Assembly (NCBI GenBank): GCA_003650545.1
Contig: QMQO01000014.1
Coordinates: forward strand, 1 to 32,029
Length of the DNA stretch: 32,029 nucleotides
Reading direction: 5' to 3'
DNA from: Candidatus Woesearchaeota archaeon
Lineage (GTDB): Archaea > Nanobdellota > Nanobdellia > Woesearchaeales > B72-G16
Shown here: positions 6,174 through 22,440 of the stretch, one piece after another
How positions within the stretch are numbered: the first letter of the stretch is position 1
How the letters are laid out: each line of letters begins with the position of its first letter
The notes under the pieces: model-generated
What the model saw: only the letters and a program-made list of their open reading frames with translations
Database searches by the model: none
Told to the model about the DNA's origin: nothing
Translations under genes and position numbers: made by a program

Positions 6174-9100
6174 ATGGAAGCTACAGAACAAATAAACATA
6201 TTTCGCGAATTTTTTGATACTCATTATTATGCAGAACTTCTTGAAAATATTCGAAAAGGAAAGAATTTTATTATTGTCGATTTTGGCAAGTTAGCTAAAT
6301 TTAATCCTGAATTGGCAGAAAATTTGCTAGATCATCCAGAAGAAGTCACTAAAGCAGCAGAGCTAGCAATAGAGCAGTTCGATCTTCCACAAGAAACACA
6401 CAACTTCAGAATTCGCTTTTTTAATCTGCCAGAATCACAAAAAATCATGATACGAAATATTAGAAGTAAACATATTGGAAAACTTTTATGGATGGAAGGT
6501 ACTGTTCGTCAAAAATCTGATGTGAGGCCACAAGTCACAAATGCGCGTTTCGAATGTCCTAGCTGCGGCAACATAATTGCAGTACTACAACTTGATAAAA
6601 AATTTCGCGAACCCTCAACATGCGGATGTGGTCGCAAAGGTAAATTCCGCTTGCTTTCAAAGGAGTTAATAGATGCACAAGGCCTCACAATAGAAGAAGC
6701 TCCAGAAGATCTAGAAGGTGGTGAACAACCAAAAAGAATTCAGGTGTTGCTTAAGGAAGATCTAGTTAGTCCTATAACCGAAAAAAAAACAAACCCTGGA
6801 AGTAAAATTAGACTTATTGGTATAATAAAAGAAGTTCCTATATCTGCACGCGATGGAGGCCAGCTTACTAGATTTGACTTAATTATCGAAGGCAACAATA
6901 TCGAAGCCGTACAAGAAGATTTCACGCAGATAGAGATAACAGACGAAGAAGTGCAAGAACTACTAAAAATTTCAAAAGATCCAAAACTTTATGAAAACTT
7001 GATCGAATCTATTGCCCCCTCAATCTATGGTCTTGAACGAATTAAAGAAGCTTTGCTTTTACAAATGGTTGGCGGTGTTAGAAAAGTCAGAAGTGATGGT
7101 GTTGTAACCCGTGGTGACATGCACATACTGCTAATGGGAGACCCTGGTGCAGCTAAATCCCAGATGTTAAAAAGGGTAGCAGACGTTGCGCCAAAAGCTC
7201 GCTTTGTCTCAGGTAAAGGCGCTTCTGGCGCAGGTTTAACAGCGGCAGTTGTTCGCGATGAATTCATCTCTGGTTGGAGTCTTGAAGCTGGTGCCCTTGT
7301 ACTAGCTAATAAAGGGATTTGTTGCACTACAGAAGATTCCGAGTTTATTTTAGAAAATGGAAAGAAAATATCATTTAAAAAGTTATTTGAATCTGAAATG
7401 AGATCTATAATTTATCCAAAATTCAAAATTCTTGCTCTCAACAATAAAACACTTAAAATTGAGCCATTCGAAATAAAAAAAGCTTTCAAAATTAAAAATA
7501 ATAAAAAAGTATATAAGATTCGAACGAGAACTGGTAGAGAGCTCAATTTAACAGAGGACAATGAAGTTTTAGTTTGCCAAAACTCGAAATTGATCTGGAA
7601 ACCTATCAGGCAGGTTAATAAAGGATCATATATTGCGGTTCCAAAAAAGATCACAATAAATAAAACAGATTCGTACTCTAAAGAGTTTGCTTATATGTGC
7701 GGACTAGTTGCATCTGAAAATCATATGAAAATTAATTCTAAAAATATACAAGCTGGCAATATATCGACAAATAAAAAGACGAAAATAGATATAATCAAAG
7801 ATAAAAAAAACGCTTCAAAGAAAAGCATATATGATGCTCTCGATTCAAAAGATTTCGCTAAAAAACTTATTTTATTTGGCATTCAAACAGAGAATATATC
7901 TACAAAATCTTTACTTGACAATAAGATTCTGACATATTCTGATGAAACAATCTCAAGTTTCTTAAAAGGAATATTCGATGGAGGAAGCTTTATTAACCTA
8001 AATCCTCTTAAAATAACTCTTGTTGCGAAAGTAGAAAAAAATGCTAGATTGTTTCAAGAACTTCTGGTTAGGCTAGGGATCATTTCGTCTGTTAAGAGAT
8101 CTGCTAAGTCATGGTATTGTGAAATCAGAGGTGCAACAAATTGCCTGAAATTCTTTAAAAAAATCGGCACAAACAATGACAACAAGTTTAAAAAACTTAC
8201 AAAAATAAATCTCAAAGAAGTTAAAGAAGGAATAGATGTTTTACCAGAACATCAAAGATTCTTTAAAGAAATAATTAAAAAACATTGTAAGAAATTAGGA
8301 AAAGCGAAACAGAGATATTTTTGGAATCGTGCTAAAAAAGGTATGGCCTTTTCTAAATATGAGCTTGCACAATTAAATAAATTGTTAGAAGATGGGTATA
8401 TAGCTAAGCATGTTGAAAGCGATATACTTTGGGATAAAATAGCATCAATTAGAGAAATCAAAGCAGAATATGTATATGATTTTACTATGAAAAAAACAAA
8501 CAATTTTATTGCAAATAACATCATAATGCATAATTGTATAGACGAAATTGACAAAATGTCTCAAGAGGATACTAGTGCTATGCATGAAGCGTTAGAAGGA
8601 CAAACTGTAACTATCAGTAAGGCAAATATCCAAGCAACATTGAGAGCAGAGACAACAGTGCTTGCTGCAGCCAACCCCAAATTCGGTAGATTTGATCCAT
8701 ATGACATTCCCGCCAAGCAAATTAATCTTCCTCCAACACTAATAAACAGATTTGATCTACTTTTTCCGATAAAGGATACACCTGATGAAGTTAAAGACAG
8801 AAAGCTTGCAACCCATATTTTAGCATTACATCAAGATCCTAAAATGGACGAACCCAAAATTAGCACAAAACTTCTACGGAAATATATAATCTATGCAAAA
8901 CAAAATGTATTTCCAAAATTAACAGATGCTGCTATTGAAGAAATTAAGAATTATTATGTAGAAATCCGCAACAAAGAAACTGGTGAAGCTGGTCTTAAAT
9001 CCGTTCCACTTACTGCAAGACAACTCGAAGCTTTGGTTAGAATGACAGAAGCAAATGCTAGGTTGCGTCTTTCACAGGAAGCAACAAGACAAGATGCTAA

Positions 9101-9404
9101 ACGCGCAATTGATCTGTTACACTACTGTCTAAGTAACATCGGTATCGACCCTGAAACTGGTAAGTTTGATATAGATCGTATTTCTACTGGAATCACAACA
9201 AGCGAGAGAAGTAAATTAGTTGTTGTTCGTGAGATCATAAACGAACTGGAAAATAAAATTGGAAAAACCATTCCAATCGAAGATGTCGTTGAGGCTGCTG
9301 CGGCCCAGGGTGTAGAAGAGAGTCAAGTGGAAGAAGCTATTGAAAAGCTAAAACGTTCAGGAGACATTTTTGAGCCTAGGAGGGGGTTCTTAAGTAAGAT
9401 TTAA
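6174..9404 (+). CDS. mcm: Replicative helicase MCM, intein-containing precursor (1076 aa; 672 aa after splicing)
   Basis: Zn finger CPSC...CGC, Walker A GDPGAAKSQ, GLTAAV, Walker B CIDEIDKM, AAANP, NRFD, TARQLEAL, C-terminal winged helix. Confidence 0.98.
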   Translation: MEATEQINIFREFFDTHYYAELLENIRKGKNFIIVDFGKLAKFNPELAENLLDHPEEVTKAAELAIEQFDLPQETHNFRIRFFNLPESQKIMIRNIRSKHIGKLLWMEGTVRQKSDVRPQVTNARFECPSCGNIIAVLQLDKKFREPSTCGCGRKGKFRLLSKELIDAQGLTIEEAPEDLEGGEQPKRIQVLLKEDLVSPITEKKTNPGSKIRLIGIIKEVPISARDGGQLTRFDLIIEGNNIEAVQEDFTQIEITDEEVQELLKISKDPKLYENLIESIAPSIYGLERIKEALLLQMVGGVRKVRSDGVVTRGDMHILLMGDPGAAKSQMLKRVADVAPKARFVSGKGASGAGLTAAVVRDEFISGWSLEAGALVLANKGICCTTEDSEFILENGKKISFKKLFESEMRSIIYPKFKILALNNKTLKIEPFEIKKAFKIKNNKKVYKIRTRTGRELNLTEDNEVLVCQNSKLIWKPIRQVNKGSYIAVPKKITINKTDSYSKEFAYMCGLVASENHMKINSKNIQAGNISTNKKTKIDIIKDKKNASKKSIYDALDSKDFAKKLILFGIQTENISTKSLLDNKILTYSDETISSFLKGIFDGGSFINLNPLKITLVAKVEKNARLFQELLVRLGIISSVKRSAKSWYCEIRGATNCLKFFKKIGTNNDNKFKKLTKINLKEVKEGIDVLPEHQRFFKEIIKKHCKKLGKAKQRYFWNRAKKGMAFSKYELAQLNKLLEDGYIAKHVESDILWDKIASIREIKAEYVYDFTMKKTNNFIANNIIMHNCIDEIDKMSQEDTSAMHEALEGQTVTISKANIQATLRAETTVLAAANPKFGRFDPYDIPAKQINLPPTLINRFDLLFPIKDTPDEVKDRKLATHILALHQDPKMDEPKISTKLLRKYIIYAKQNVFPKLTDAAIEEIKNYYVEIRNKETGEAGLKSVPLTARQLEALVRMTEANARLRLSQEATRQDAKRAIDLLHYCLSNIGIDPETGKFDIDRISTGITTSERSKLVVVREIINELENKIGKTIPIEDVVEAAAAQGVEESQVEEAIEKLKRSGDIFEPRRGFLSKI
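7323..8534 (+). mobile_element. Intein (404 aa) in MCM with LAGLIDADG-type endonuclease remnant
   Basis: In-frame insert starts Cys (CTTEDS), ends VYDFTM...NNFIANNIIMHN and is followed by Cys+1; removal restores ANKGIC-CIDEIDKM; internal GLVASENH, FLKGIFDGGS and LLVRLGIIS blocks. Confidence 0.95.
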
Positions 9405-10296: not shown

Positions 10297-11637
10297 TTAT
10301 GTTTTGCTCAAGACAATCTGCTTTCCATCTCGGGAAACAAATATATTCTGTTTAGAATAGCCAACCTCCTGAGCTAGCTCTGCTAGAGCCAAAGACATTT
10401 TCATGACACCGTGAGCAGGAATAATATTTGCTGGCCTTAACATGTTAATTAAGTCACGTAGATCTTCTTTAGCAGCGTGCCCGCTTACATGAATATCACG
10501 AAATATCCTAACCCCTTTAGAACGCAGCTTTTCTTCCAAAGATTTACGGTTCTTGATATTTAATTTATTGGGGATTACAGTGCAAGAAAATATAACAATA
10601 TCATCCTTTCCAAATTTAAAATTATAAAAACGATCAATCATCTTTGACAGCACAGCTTTGGGTTCACCTTGATGGCCTGTTACGACAAGCAAATATCTAT
10701 CTTTATGTTTCGCCACCTGGTCAAGCTTAGCTTTAATCTTCTTCGAGTATTTTATCAACTCCACATCCTTCTTAAAATTTATCAAGTTAATAGATTCTGC
10801 GGAGTTAACATACTTTGCTAAACTTCTACCCAAGAAAATAATCTTTCTACGTAAACGTTTTCCAAACTTAATTATACTTTTCAGTCTAGCTAAATGTGAA
10901 GAAAAGGTTGTCACAATAATCGCTTTACCTTCTGACTCAACACCGGTTAAAACATCTTGCAGCATGCTTTCTGCAACCTTCTCTGAAGGGGTTTTTTTAG
11001 CGTCTTTAGCATAAATACAATCTACAATCAATGCAATAACTTTTTCCTCAGCCAGCTTCTTTAATCTCGCATAATTGGGTTTTTTTCCAAGCATTGGGTG
11101 ACTATCAAACTTAAAATCGTTTGCGTACACAACCACACCTTCTGGTGTATGTAATGCAACCATCACTGTTTGTGGAGTAGAATGTGTCATATTAATAAAC
11201 TCTACACACATTTCATCTGTTAACTTATACATTGAATTAACATTTATAGACTTTATCTCGTTATCTAATCTAATTTTTTCGTCTTTTAATATGGTTTTAA
11301 TAACTGCTTTTGTAAAAGGGGTACATATTATTGGTGCATCAAACTTACGAGCTAAAAAGTGTATTGCTCCAACATGGTCTAGGTGAGCGTGTGTTGGTAT
11401 GATAGCTTTAACTTTACTCTTCCAATCGCCGAGTTTTCTTACATCAGGTATGGCTCCAGCCTTAAGTAGTCTAGAAACAGTTATATTTTTTATATCACCT
11501 TGTTCGTCTTCTGTAACACGGATATAATTCTCAAGATGAAGACCCATATCAAAAATAACAACATCGTTTCCACACTTAATTGCGGTCATATTCTTTCCAA
11601 CTTCGTTATATCCGCCAATAGTTTTGATTACAATCAT
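10297..11637 (-). CDS. rnj: Archaeal RNase J (beta-CASP metallo-beta-lactamase ribonuclease)
   Basis: GGYNEVGKN, THAHLDHVG, NDFKFD, TGHQGEP, HVSGHA, IPAHG. Confidence 0.93.
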   Translation of the reverse strand: MIVIKTIGGYNEVGKNMTAIKCGNDVVIFDMGLHLENYIRVTEDEQGDIKNITVSRLLKAGAIPDVRKLGDWKSKVKAIIPTHAHLDHVGAIHFLARKFDAPIICTPFTKAVIKTILKDEKIRLDNEIKSINVNSMYKLTDEMCVEFINMTHSTPQTVMVALHTPEGVVVYANDFKFDSHPMLGKKPNYARLKKLAEEKVIALIVDCIYAKDAKKTPSEKVAESMLQDVLTGVESEGKAIIVTTFSSHLARLKSIIKFGKRLRRKIIFLGRSLAKYVNSAESINLINFKKDVELIKYSKKIKAKLDQVAKHKDRYLLVVTGHQGEPKAVLSKMIDRFYNFKFGKDDIVIFSCTVIPNKLNIKNRKSLEEKLRSKGVRIFRDIHVSGHAAKEDLRDLINMLRPANIIPAHGVMKMSLALAELAQEVGYSKQNIFVSRDGKQIVLSKT

Positions 11638-12350
11638 AGTAATCCTCTGATTAGTTTCTTGACATCATATAAATCTTTTGCATAATAATCTGCATATTTC
11701 AGTGCGCTGTGATTCTGAAATCTTTTTGTTTCTATTAAAATAGACGTAATTCCTAATTGTTTTGCTGCAAGATCTTCTACAGGATCGTCACCGATCATGA
11801 TACATTCTTCTGACTTAATTTTACCTAAGAACAAACTTTTTCTCATAAACTTTTTAAATGGTATCAATGTAGATTTTTTCCTAGACCTATCAGCGAAATA
11901 TAACTTATGAAAATATTTTTTGATTTTAAGTTTTTTCAATTCTCTAACAATTCTCAATCTAAAACCATTCGTTATTAAAATAATCTTCACATTTTTCTTT
12001 TTTAAAAACCTCAGTAAGGGTAGAGCCCCCTTTCTTAATCTTAAATTATCCAGAGCATAATTTCTAAAAAGTTTTGTTAATTTGATCTTCTTTCTTAAAC
12101 TTGTTTTTATACCTGCGTGTTGAAAAAATAAATCTGTCCAGTCTAGAAATCTTAAGATGCGTCTTTTCTTAATCTTATTAATCTCCTTTGTTGTTTTTAA
12201 AAGAGCTGTTTTAAACCTCGCAAAAGTAATGTTAACACCATGTTTGTTCAAGATTTTTGTGAAGTTTCTACTTGTCTTAAATCTCTCTATCAATCTTGTG
12301 GTGTCTGCTAAAGTATCATCCCAATCAAATATAACATATTTTATTGCCAT
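11634..12350 (-). CDS. HAD-superfamily hydrolase
   Basis: Motif I FDWDDTL, motif II LITNG, motif IV MIGDDPVEDL; ATGA overlap with rnj. Confidence 0.9.
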   Translation of the reverse strand: MAIKYVIFDWDDTLADTTRLIERFKTSRNFTKILNKHGVNITFARFKTALLKTTKEINKIKKRRILRFLDWTDLFFQHAGIKTSLRKKIKLTKLFRNYALDNLRLRKGALPLLRFLKKKNVKIILITNGFRLRIVRELKKLKIKKYFHKLYFADRSRKKSTLIPFKKFMRKSLFLGKIKSEECIMIGDDPVEDLAAKQLGITSILIETKRFQNHSALKYADYYAKDLYDVKKLIRGLL

Positions 12351-12354
12351 TTTG

Positions 12355-12363
12355 AAAAAAAAA
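12355..12363 (-). terminator. Oligo-T tract after tRNA-Leu
   Basis: T9 run on the minus strand 6 nt after the tRNA discriminator base. Confidence 0.5.
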
Positions 12364-12415
12364 GACGGATGCGGGGAGGAGGATTCGAACCCCCGTAGGC
12401 ACTAAGCCAACAGAT

Positions 12416-12466
12416 GGCTCACAGGAGCACTTCATTGCTAAGTTGCTTAGCTCATCACTCAATTAA
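12416..12466 (-). other. tRNA intron 3 (51 nt, canonical 37/38)
   Basis: BHB with central helix CTCA/TGAG and bulges AG|T and CC|A. Confidence 0.88.
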
Positions 12467-12473
12467 CTTGAGT

Positions 12474-12504
12474 TAGGACGTTTTAGCGCCATATGCCAAA
12501 AACA
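12474..12504 (-). other. tRNA intron 2 (31 nt, position 30/31)
   Basis: Central helix GGAC/GTCC, bulges AG|T and TA|A, intron stem GTTTT/AAAAC. Confidence 0.85.
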
Positions 12505-12520
12505 CTGTCCCGTTTGGCCA

Positions 12521-12564
12521 CTCCGGACACATAGCGTGTAGGAGTGCACGAACGCCAGTGAGTT
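12521..12564 (-). other. tRNA intron 1 (44 nt, position 15/16, D-loop)
   Basis: Central helix CCGG/CCGG, bulges AG|A and AG|T, intron stem including TGGCGT/ACGCTA; exon-side helix is absent (relaxed BHB/BHL). Confidence 0.8.
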
Positions 12565-12608
12565 CTCCGGCATCCCCGCAGTTGCGTAATAAGAGAAGTA
12601 AGTATCCA

Positions 12609-12617
12609 TTTATAAAA
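12609..12617 (-). promoter_or_regulatory. TATA box of tRNA-Leu gene
   Basis: TTTTATAAA about 30 nt upstream of tRNA G1. Confidence 0.65.
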
Positions 12618-12643
12618 TTACCTAAAAACAAAAACAAATGAAA

Positions 12644-13099
12644 TCAGACAAGTTTTCCTAACTTGCTTTCTATTTCACCCAATTCAGACTCTAGTTTGTC
12701 CAACTGTGTTGCAATCTTTGGTTTTGCAACAACAATTTTCTTTTCCTTTTTCTTTGAACTAATCTTTTTACCTTTCTTTCCCTTAATCTTTTTCTTAACA
12801 TTTTCTCCTGTCATCCTTGCAGCCTTCTTCTCAATCTTTTCTTCAAATTCTGGTGTCTTAAATCTTAACGAAGTTTTAGGTAAAGAAGCTTTCAACTTTG
12901 CTATATCCCGAGAGATGCTAGATATAAGTTGTTTAAGTCTGTCAACTTCTTCTTGTCTTTCCTTTCTTACAGTTTTAAATTTTTCATAACGCTGTAATAA
13001 TTGTACGACATCTTTTGATGATTCTAGAATAGAACGCCTGATCTCTACAGGATCTTTTATTCCAACATAGACAACATCTTTATCTTTTTCAGCCACCAT
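12644..13099 (-). CDS. Hypothetical coiled-coil protein with Lys-rich region (start reassigned to ATG 13099)
   Basis: AGGTGA-N5-ATG; VYVGI strand followed by a long heptad helix, Lys-rich linker and C-terminal helix LDKLESELGEIESKL. Confidence 0.8.
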   Translation of the reverse strand: MVAEKDKDVVYVGIKDPVEIRRSILESSKDVVQLLQRYEKFKTVRKERQEEVDRLKQLISSISRDIAKLKASLPKTSLRFKTPEFEEKIEKKAARMTGENVKKKIKGKKGKKISSKKKEKKIVVAKPKIATQLDKLESELGEIESKLGKLV

Positions 13100-13109
13100 T
13101 TTTGTCACC

Positions 13110-13346
13110 TTAAACGGCATTAGGTTCAAATAAGACTTTATCAACAAAGCTTACTTTTCTTTCTGCTTCATCTAGGGCTGCTTGCCATAGCTCTAGTTCA
13201 GCGTCTTCTTCATTCTTCAGTTCATAAATTTTGCCAAGCGTATCTCTAGCATCAATAATCTTATTTTTAATCATGTTCATTACATCCAACACATCTTTAT
13301 ATTCTTCTATTTTAACAAAGACCGGCATTAATTCGTCTGTCATCAT
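13110..13346 (-). CDS. Small hypothetical coiled-coil protein (start ATG 13346 or 13343)
   Basis: GAGGGTG motif upstream; PVFVKI...W...L...RK...VDKVLFE, clearly paralogous to the C-terminus of the upstream gene. Confidence 0.82.
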   Translation of the reverse strand: MMTDELMPVFVKIEEYKDVLDVMNMIKNKIIDARDTLGKIYELKNEEDAELELWQAALDEAERKVSFVDKVLFEPNAV

Positions 13347-22140: not shown

Positions 22141-22440
22141 GAGTGTAGAAAAGCGCTTGATATCCGCAATTTTGTGAGGAAAGTCCGTCCACCATAAAAA
22201 GGCCACTTCCGTAAGGGAGGCCTATAAGCGGCGGCAACCGCTCAGAAACGAAACCGTCTTGGTTAAGGGTGATACGAGCGAATGCTTCTGAGAAGAAGCA
22301 GAGCTAACCCGTTGACGTTTCCAAGACAAGGATGAAACGGCGAGTCCTGGTCGGTGCAACTTAAGAAAGGCTTAGTAGAATATCAAACAGACCGTCCCCA
22401 TAGGGGTCTGACAAAAGACGGCTTATGCTTTTCTACACTT
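22141..22440 (+). ncRNA. rnpB: RNase P RNA (archaeal, compact)
   Basis: P1 AGTGTAGAAAAGC/GCTTTTCTACACT; CR-I GAGGAAAGTCC; CAGAAAC; TGAAAC; GGTGCAA; CR-V ACAAAAGACGGCTTAT pairing to form P4; P2 TTGATAT/ATATCAA. Confidence 0.93.

Follow-up and report, generated by a model that had tools for sequence, protein, structure and literature searches.

The 32,029-nucleotide (nt) stretch of Candidatus Woesearchaeota archaeon DNA analysed here, referred to below as the window (contig QMQO01000014.1 of assembly GCA_003650545.1, positions 1 to 32,029), carries on its minus strand, at 12370..12579, a 210-nt tRNA-Leu(CAA) gene that three introns split into four exons. We consider it very probable that this is a real three-intron tRNA gene. 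It also seems highly likely that the explanation holds as a whole, namely that the tRNA-Leu(CAA) gene works in its Woesearchaeota-type DPANN host, that its three introns are spliced, and that intron 3 is more than a spacer. Multiple-intron tRNAs have already been described for Thermoproteales and for DPANN archaea, and it is the guide-like intron 3 that is the new part. Judged by its sequence and that of its relatives, this intron is a conserved kink-turn (K-turn)/antisense element, a feature missed by the sequence-only reading of the window that this analysis follows up. We slightly favour the view that it represents a minimal, cis-acting guide of the box C/D type, with a single K-turn, for the methylation of C34.

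The gene was laid out by splitting the sequence and by a blind solver, which starts at a T-loop hexamer, proceeds by bulge-helix-bulge (BHB)-like jumps and then applies a cloverleaf test; from the T-loop anchor alone the solver found the same three introns. All coordinates in this paragraph refer to the minus strand. Exon 1 (12565..12579, 15 nt; spliced product, paralogue identity 15/15) supplies the 5' strands of the acceptor and D stems as far as G15. It is followed by intron 1 (12521..12564, 44 nt; pairing and constrained fold), which lies at 15/16 in the D-loop and has the central helix CCGG/CCGG with the bulges AG-A and AG-T, the hyphen marking the cut. Exon 2 (12505..12520, 16 nt; paralogue identity 16/16) contains the 3' part of the D-loop, the 3' strand of the D stem, nt 26 and anticodon stem nt 27-30, and intron 2 (12474..12504, 31 nt; constrained fold and covariation) interrupts the stem at 30/31, with the central helix GGAC/GTCC, the inner helix GTTTT/AAAAC and the bulges AG-T and TA-A. 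Exon 3 (12467..12473) is a micro-exon of only 7 nt, ACTCAAG, covering nt 31-37 with the anticodon CAA, and was recovered from the spliced product, a pattern search and the orthologues. Intron 3 (12416..12466, 51 nt; orthologues and covariation) occupies the canonical 37/38 site, with the central helix CTCA/TGAG and the bulges AG-T and CC-A, and contains the antisense element and K-turn. Exon 4 (12370..12415, 46 nt; spliced product, paralogue) provides nt 38, the 3' strand of the anticodon stem, the long variable arm, the T arm, the 3' strand of the acceptor stem and A73.

This split into four exons (15, 16, 7 and 46 nt) and three introns (44, 31 and 51 nt), which the sequence-only reading had proposed, was reproduced exactly, and introns make up 126 of the 210 nt (60%). 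Its description of the junctions, a 4-base-pair (bp) central helix flanked by 3-nt bulges that are cut past their second base, was likewise correct in every detail at all three: in each case the four nt ending 2 nt before the 5' cut pair perfectly with the four ending 2 nt before the 3' cut. The six bases at the 3' end of intron 1 are the same as those at the 3' end of exon 1, because both carry the palindromic CCGG of the central helix and then the AG of the bulge. The joined exons do form the well-formed 84-nt leucine cloverleaf that had been claimed. ARAGORN calls tRNA-Leu(caa) over positions 1-84, with an acceptor stem of 7 bp, a D stem of 3 bp, anticodon and T stems of 5 bp each, a long variable arm and A73. 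A constrained fold of the precursor (-60.9 kcal/mol) accommodates all three splice motifs together with the acceptor and T arms.

That the three-intron gene is real is backed, beyond the cloverleaf, by a paralogue, by orthologues and by covariation. The paralogue is a tRNA-Leu(UAG) gene elsewhere in the genome (contig C1, 54120-54278, plus strand), whose introns lie at 30/31 (14 nt), at 37/38 (18 nt) and in the variable arm (43 nt) and which has a 7-nt micro-exon of its own; its exons are otherwise identical to those of the Leu(CAA) gene. Exons 1 and 2 are present there as one unbroken 31-nt stretch (C1:54120-54150, 31/31 identical), and the last 32 nt of exon 4 (its nt 15-46) match C1:54247-54278 at 32/32 positions, whereas the variable arm, unbroken in the Leu(CAA) gene, is interrupted. 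As each gene is whole where the other is split, each supports the exon joins of the other. Among 40 relatives searched by BLAST, one per family of the order, seven genomes align at 70-80% identity from exon 2 through intron 2, the micro-exon and intron 3 to exon 4. In a wider set of 35 orthologous genes (this one and 34 of the same order), alignment to the spliced product places the insertions at the same sites.

Covariation was assessed in an alignment of 12 orthologous genes, 11 of which had been chosen by the guide pattern described below. The BHB-state structure is 94.9% paired in these, as against 22-48% when the partners are slid, and includes eight pairs with compensatory changes; none of 500 shuffles reaches the observed values. 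In intron 2 the central helix is paired in every gene (100%), and two of its pairs covary, one of them occurring as UA in 7 genes, CG in 4 and UG in 1. The anticodon stem, whose formation requires the removal of introns 2 and 3, is also 100% paired, again with two covarying pairs. The introns are not an assembly artefact of the bin, since a Logan contig of 19,610 nt, which a different assembler built from the probable source run, is identical over 12372-12700. In DNA contigs from other organisms homology breaks at 12415/12416, and intron-less forms occur there.

Intron 3 contains, near its 5' end, the antisense element TTGAGT (12457..12462, minus strand like the parts that follow; pattern search and alignment), complementary to A31-A36 of the anticodon loop. 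A 1-nt spacer separates it from a D'-like box ATGA (12452..12455; pattern search and K-turn scan), the non-bulged strand of the K-turn, so that the G of the element at intron position 7, which pairs with C34, is the fifth base upstream of the box. Box C/D ribonucleoproteins (RNPs) are described as methylating the nucleotide at precisely this N+5 position upstream of a D or D' box (PMC7994747). Behind the box come the C-stem hairpin of the K-turn (12437..12451, 6 bp with a 3-nt loop; K-turn scan and covariation) and a C'-like box AATGAAG (12430..12436; K-turn scan), in which the 3-nt K-turn loop AAT precedes the sheared GA. The arrangement has the K-turn signature of an NUGA non-bulged strand, a 3-nt loop ending in U, tandem G.A pairs and a closing Watson-Crick stem, laid out as box D' then box C', and we infer that it is an L7Ae-type binding site. 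The K-turn or K-loop of box C/D RNAs is thus present in a relaxed form, as NUGA (mostly AUGA or CUGA), a hairpin and RAU-GA.

All seven relatives found by BLAST share this series of features: the micro-exon, three or four bases, TTGAGT (TCGAGT in one), one variable base, ATGA or CTGA, a hairpin, and GAT-GA or AAT-GA. Reduced to a search pattern (micro-exon, 3-7 bases, TTGAGT, one base, MTGA), it matches 101 of 401 genomes from the order and 78 of 258 genera (98/398 genomes when three unpublished ones are left out), nearly always as a single copy; the reversed control gave 0/401. When the spacing was freed to 0-5 bases before TGA in 101 genomes, one per family, 35 of 39 matches kept the register that puts C34 at N+5, even though the spacer base itself varies, and the reversed control produced one match. 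At 27 of 34 distinct loci the box is immediately followed by a hairpin of 3 bp or more and then by NNN-GA, compared with 4.6% of shuffles; the remaining seven have a 2-bp stem with a tetraloop or imperfect stems. In the 12-gene alignment all five hairpin pairs tested show compensatory changes, and TTGAGT is 98.6% paired with A31-A36. Most orthologues have an intron 3 of 38-54 nt. A scan of the genome for other cis guides with K-turn hairpins returned 19 matches, among which only the Leu(CAA) intron was convincing. A guide function for introns 1 or 2 was considered and dropped, neither having the UGA/GA K-turn signature. Our literature searches returned no paper describing a tRNA-Leu intron with a C/D-type or K-turn element, and none on tRNA-Leu introns of Woesearchaeota.

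The enzymes that such a gene would call for are encoded in the genome. The splicing endonuclease EndA is represented by a single PF01974 match (C6:38271-38531, 111 bits) in a 176-residue open reading frame (ORF), and a tblastn search of the genome found no second copy. The enzyme is collinear with the alpha4 EndA of M. jannaschii (1a79), with 172 and 171 aligned residues respectively and the catalytic Tyr, His and Lys in register, and we therefore class it as a single alpha4-like gene, the classification that had been proposed as a check. At the aligned site it lacks the six-residue lysine-rich insertion of the N. equitans alpha subunit, and it is 6-9 residues shorter than crenarchaeal alpha subunits across the aligned stretch. 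Such insertions or loops have been held responsible for broad specificity (PMC3239211, PMC5829648), while alpha4-type EndA is called strict in the classical work as given in PMC4090602. We take the L3 loop of PMC5829648 to be this lysine-rich insertion, an equation that follows the passage in PMC3239211 rather than the figure in which the loop is defined. The place of the expected broad-specificity endonuclease is taken here by one alpha4-like EndA in which the known specificity loops are missing. To judge by the relaxed motifs at 15/16 and 30/31, its specificity must exceed that of the classical alpha4 enzymes.

A second EndA subunit in the missing 15% of the genome was considered and is unlikely, as relatives with closed one-contig genomes also have one gene. 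Across 41 genomes, one per family, PF01974 gave one match in 39, a weak second match in one and none in one, and two closed single-contig genomes are among those with a single match. The closest EndA homologues, of the same length and with 60-72% identity, come from records of Candidatus Woesearchaeota, Nanoarchaeota or Nanoarchaeia archaeon, in keeping with the DPANN-like organism inferred earlier from the sequence; some third-party bins among the homologues carry a Methanosarcinales label and are probably mislabelled. Next to the EndA gene on the opposite strand lies a 314-residue protein with the metallo-beta-lactamase motif THWHGDH (L008:2078-3022, plus strand, on C6). By eye it looks like RNase Z; if so, two tRNA-processing genes are adjacent.

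The ligase RtcB is found on contig C10 (C10:11502-14324, minus strand, 457 bits) as two Pfam pieces some 1.5 kb apart in one 1008-residue frame, which probably contains an intein. All three proteins of the box C/D system are encoded: fibrillarin (234 bits, contig C9), Nop5 (182 bits, contig C16) and L7Ae (104 bits). The Nop5 gene (L071:1492-2187, minus strand) is flanked by genes for an amino-acid kinase and a PfkB kinase, and fibrillarin lies on a separate contig. Fibrillarin is found in 98 of the 101 family representatives and the guide pattern in 37, which leaves no usable association between the two. The Pfam model for the N-terminal domain of Nop5, PF08156, stayed under its cut-off in every control genome, archaeal ones included, and is uninformative.

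Gene structure, motifs, conservation, covariation and the genes for the enzymes can all be read directly from the genomes. From these we infer transcription, cleavage at the bulges, L7Ae binding and methylation, in the following order. The gene would be transcribed as a precursor of about 210 nt. Before splicing, the 5' part of intron 3 would pair with the anticodon loop beside the K-turn; in this guide fold L7Ae, Nop5 and fibrillarin would assemble, and fibrillarin would methylate the 2'-O of C34 to give 2'-O-methylcytidine (Cm34). The splice fold would exclude the guide fold: in it CTCA would pair with TGAG at the 3' end of the intron, GAGT would pair inside the intron, and the bulges would be offered to EndA. 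The single EndA would then cut the three BHB motifs at 15/16, 30/31 and 37/38, and RtcB would ligate the four exons, including the micro-exon, to the 84-nt tRNA. A more general proposal can be made, which we advance tentatively and expect is somewhat more apt to fail than to hold in all its parts. It states that the canonical pre-tRNA-Leu(CAA) intron serves as a minimal, single-K-turn cis guide in no fewer than a quarter of Woesearchaeales genomes, making Cm34 before splicing with a 6-7-bp antisense and a Nop5 without its N-terminal domain, and that the lineage splices relaxed motifs at 15/16, at 30/31, in the D-loop and in the T-loop with a plain, loopless alpha4-like EndA.

Several observations weigh against this account, in part against splicing as drawn above and in part against the guide. 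The BHB-competent fold is not the predicted minimum but lies 24 kcal/mol above it (-60.9 vs -85.1 kcal/mol), so that proteins or co-transcriptional folding would need to favour it. Introns 1 and 2 have no outer helix and are of the relaxed helix-bulge-helix (HBh') form, and the EndA looks like the classically strict alpha4 type. Intron 1 was found neither in the paralogue nor in the 34 other orthologues. The only DNA run holding the stretch is the probable source, and the single RNA run (share 0.08) gave 0 contigs over the locus. As regards the guide, the boxes are off consensus (NUGA, mostly AUGA, rather than CUGA, and RAUGA[AU] rather than RUGAUGA), the antisense duplex with A31-A36(G37) reaches 6-7 bp compared with the usual 10-12 nt given in PMC7994747, and neither a terminal C/D motif nor a second K-turn was found in the orthologue sequences (no C box at the 5' end of the intron, no CUGA at its 3' end). 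Nop5, at 231 residues with its Pfam Nop domain at 35-227, has no recognisable N-terminal fibrillarin-binding domain, and 64 of the 101 family representatives lack the pattern. The invariance of TTGAGT is biased by the selection of 11 of the 12 aligned sequences with that pattern, and four of its six nt also belong to the intron's inner stem, a structural constraint that could by itself account for some of their conservation. The single K-turn, short duplex, degenerate boxes and short Nop5 speak for an alternative that accepts the three-intron tRNA and gives intron 3 a purely structural role, in which L7Ae or the fold itself stiffens the intron and holds the micro-exon for EndA, and no methylation is guided. 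This would also suit the double use of GAGT, which forms the non-canonical stem of the K-turn, and with it the inner helix of the splice motif (88.3% paired), and the imperfect central helix (CTCA/TAAG) of many orthologues, which might need help in folding. We nevertheless consider it unlikely. The intron partner of GAGT varies, mostly by one-sided changes, but TTGAGT does not, and its TT lies outside that stem; an antisense strand that stays invariant while its partner drifts is best explained by the invariant anticodon loop. Pure structure needs no N+5 register, yet the one-nt length of the spacer is kept in 35/39 matches although its base varies. Finally, the element is unchanged in genes without intron 2 (an intron that 23 of the 35 genes compared lack), so it does not exist to serve the micro-exon.

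Two further explanations concern the gene as such. It might be decaying, inactivated by intron 1 or by the accumulation of three introns, with UUG read by another tRNA-Leu (for example UAA). The presence of intron 1 in just one of the 35 orthologous genes fits this, as do the RNA run that yielded nothing over the locus and the state of the genome, which is 85% complete and has most of its tRNAs, including a possible alternative tRNA-Leu, not located. We regard decay as very improbable all the same: the exon stretches shared with the paralogue are identical, every stem of the spliced product is intact, intron 1 itself has a perfect GC-rich 4-bp helix and both 3-nt bulges, and further tRNAs of the same genome have three introns. 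By eye, the gene is also flanked by a TATA-like box TTTTATAAA 30-38 nt 5' of the tRNA start (12609..12617, minus strand) and by a run of nine T, likely an archaeal terminator, 7 nt past A73 (12355..12363, minus strand). A chance resemblance or assembly artefact, with no tRNA at the locus, can draw on the behaviour of the solver, which also returned eight spurious two- or three-intron solutions here that ARAGORN accepted as tRNA-His(atg) and that have no homologue support; intron removal followed by ARAGORN is thus permissive and insufficient by itself. Among the solver's solutions, however, only Leu(CAA) matches the paralogue and orthologues and covaries, and with the stretch reproduced in the 19.6-kb contig of a second assembler this explanation has a negligible probability.

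The closest precedent for the gene's architecture is found in the Thermoproteales, whose multiple-intron tRNAs have three introns as their maximum (Sugahara et al. 2008, summarised in Fujishima & Kanai 2014, PMC4033280). The two systems share up to three BHB introns per gene, canonical and non-canonical sites, invisibility to tRNA finders and the involvement of many tRNAs. They differ in lineage, DPANN here rather than Crenarchaeota, and in the endonuclease, a single alpha4-like EndA in place of the (alpha-beta)2 enzyme with its Crenarchaea-specific loop. Intron transposition, described for Thermoproteales, has left no sign among these three introns, where BLAST with the three introns found no copy longer than 15 nt and no evidence of intron families. 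Within DPANN, Kaneta et al. 2018 (PMC5829648) linked an alpha4-type EndA with an L3 loop to more tRNA disruption, and drew attention to multiple-intron tRNAs in DPANN archaea and to tRNA sets that are incomplete, among others in Woesearchaeota and related lineages. The present genome resembles their set in its single alpha-type EndA and heavily disrupted tRNA genes, but its 176-residue EndA lacks the lysine-rich insertion that we equate with L3.

For intron 3, the nearest counterpart is the euryarchaeal pre-tRNA-Trp intron, a box C/D guide in Pyrococcus (sR50) and Haloferax volcanii (Clouet d'Orval 2001 and Singh 2004, as cited in PMC7994747 and PMC2584109). On our reading of intron 3, both guides lie in the canonical 37/38 intron of the tRNA they act on, C34 falls at D' N+5, and the guide and splice folds exclude each other. 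The Leu(CAA) intron differs in its tRNA, in having one hairpin-closed C'/D'-like K-turn and no terminal C/D pair, in a duplex of 6-7 bp instead of about 10-12 nt, in the lack of a second guide for position 39, and in its length, 38-54 nt in most orthologues. For Pyrococcus, a trans-acting C/D small RNA (sRNA) has been predicted that would methylate the wobble base of tRNA-Leu(CAA) (PMC7994747); target and enzyme system would be the same, but that sRNA is a separate gene, while the candidate guide here lies inside the target's own intron, joined to it by a loop linker of 3-7 nt. The 66-nt intron of the Nanoarchaeum equitans elongator tRNA-Met has been observed as a stable RNA, and before it only tRNA-Trp introns were known to contain a C/D sRNA, according to Randau 2012 (PMC3491384). 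Like intron 3, it comes from a DPANN tRNA gene and combines C/D-like elements with a stable hairpin; it belongs to a different tRNA and has been seen as RNA, whereas the element described here is known from DNA alone.

The genome to which the window belongs (1.64 Mb in 133 contigs, 36% G+C, stated contamination 3.9%) hides most of its tRNAs from standard tools, as the sequence-only reading had anticipated. ARAGORN reports 0 tRNAs in the window, and none on the precursor with its intron option (-i). Rfam showed no tRNA (RF00005) at the locus at either the gathering threshold or E<=10, with only four chance matches turning up; no tRNA match was to be expected, because the gene is 60% intron. In the whole genome RF00005 has seven matches, and ARAGORN finds four tRNAs without introns and lists seven with the intron option, among them a Cys(gca) with an 87-nt intron that is in fact the miscalled Leu(UAG) paralogue. 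About 12 intact tRNA-like T arms are present. A search for hidden tRNAs as GC islands proved useless, returning 1467 islands. Some short contigs, such as C116, C115, C91 and C103, exceed 60% G+C almost throughout and may be rRNA, foreign DNA or contamination.

The prediction of heavily interrupted tRNAs was upheld by a solver census, in which ARAGORN-confirmed genes were obtained at 12 of 211 anchors. Four have three introns (Leu(CAA), Leu(UAG), Arg(UCG) and Ser(GCU)), two have two (Ser(GGA) and Ser(UGA)), four have one (Ser(CGA), Pro(UGG), Asp(GUC) and His(GUG)) and two have none (Leu(GAG) and Val(CAC)). Of the 35 orthologous Leu(CAA) genes, however, no more than 12 are resolved by the solver, which also gives the spurious His(atg) solutions described above, so these counts are a lower bound and need homologue support. 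The tRNA-Ser(GCU) gene may itself have a 15/16 intron (25 nt, with 19/20 as the alternative), and the introns of tRNA-Arg(UCG) measure 37, 15 and 31 nt (C49:7219 and C10:29504 regions). D-loop insertion sites may thus be reused within the genome.

Intron sites across the order were taken from the spliced alignment of the 35 orthologous genes to the product of this one, and are approximate because repeated bases let the gaps slide. The 37/38 intron is present in 35/35, the genes having been selected by it. An intron at 30/31 is found in 12 of them, one in the D-loop at about 20-22 in four to six, one in the T-loop in five or six, and one at 15/16 in this genome only. By number of introns, the genes divide into 15 with one, 13 with two and five with three, and a further two with messy alignments also appear by eye to have three. 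With three introns in at least 5/35, this number is not exceptional for the Leu(CAA) gene in this order; the statement that triple-intron tRNAs are rare does not apply within the lineage, although three remains the maximum in reviews of Thermoproteales. Read from this distribution, intron 1 is a recent, lineage-specific gain, and introns 2 and 3 with the 7-nt micro-exon are old and common to families of the order. In relatives (L047, L052, L058, L065 and L066) an extra T-loop intron of 36-49 nt lies just behind GGTTCGAA of the Leu(CAA) gene, and in others (L011, L039, L059 and L063) a D-loop intron of 21-23 nt follows GGCCAA. T-loop introns probably explain the scarcity of intact T arms in the present genome.

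The gene itself sits in a 293-nt gap between two genes of the same strand, a 167-residue ORF without a Pfam match (12644-13147, minus strand) and a HAD hydrolase (11634-12350). In several relatives (among L013, L014, L043, L053, L067 and L068) a reading frame also ends just 5' of tRNA-Leu(CAA), with last codons that by eye resemble those of the 167-residue ORF, and gene order looks conserved across families. Elsewhere in the window, the MCM helicase gene (6174-9404, plus strand, 1076 residues) contains an intein with a LAGLIDADG homing domain (Pfam MCM, Intein_splicing and LAGLIDADG_3), and the archaeal RNase P RNA (22145-22436, plus strand, 124 bits) is the window's sole Rfam match at the gathering threshold.

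The Leu(CAA) gene is a good catch in a lineage in which such genes are common. What is new is the distribution of the guide pattern (101/401), the register test (35/39), the covariation counts, the link to the two-intron micro-exon architecture and an EndA without the known specificity loops. With only seven tRNAs visible to the covariance model in a 1.64-Mb genome, the 'missing tRNAs' of DPANN bins are largely an annotation artefact of multiple introns, and Kaneta et al. 2018 (PMC5829648) called for exactly such curation. Classical work tied non-canonical and multiple introns to (alpha-beta)2 or epsilon2 EndA with special loops; here one loopless alpha4-like EndA must suffice, and the basis of its substrate breadth can be tested on a 210-nt transcript with a single small recombinant protein. 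What makes the gene worth taking to the bench is its conserved guide-like intron, together with the plain EndA. In bacteria the same Cm34 modification is made by a stand-alone enzyme, TrmL. If intron 3 is indeed a guide, Cm34 of tRNA-Leu(CAA) would in these archaea be installed by an intron-borne guide of one K-turn and six antisense bases. Such a guide would offer a natural minimal substrate for what a box C/D RNP needs, and would give a functional reason for keeping intron 3 across many families.

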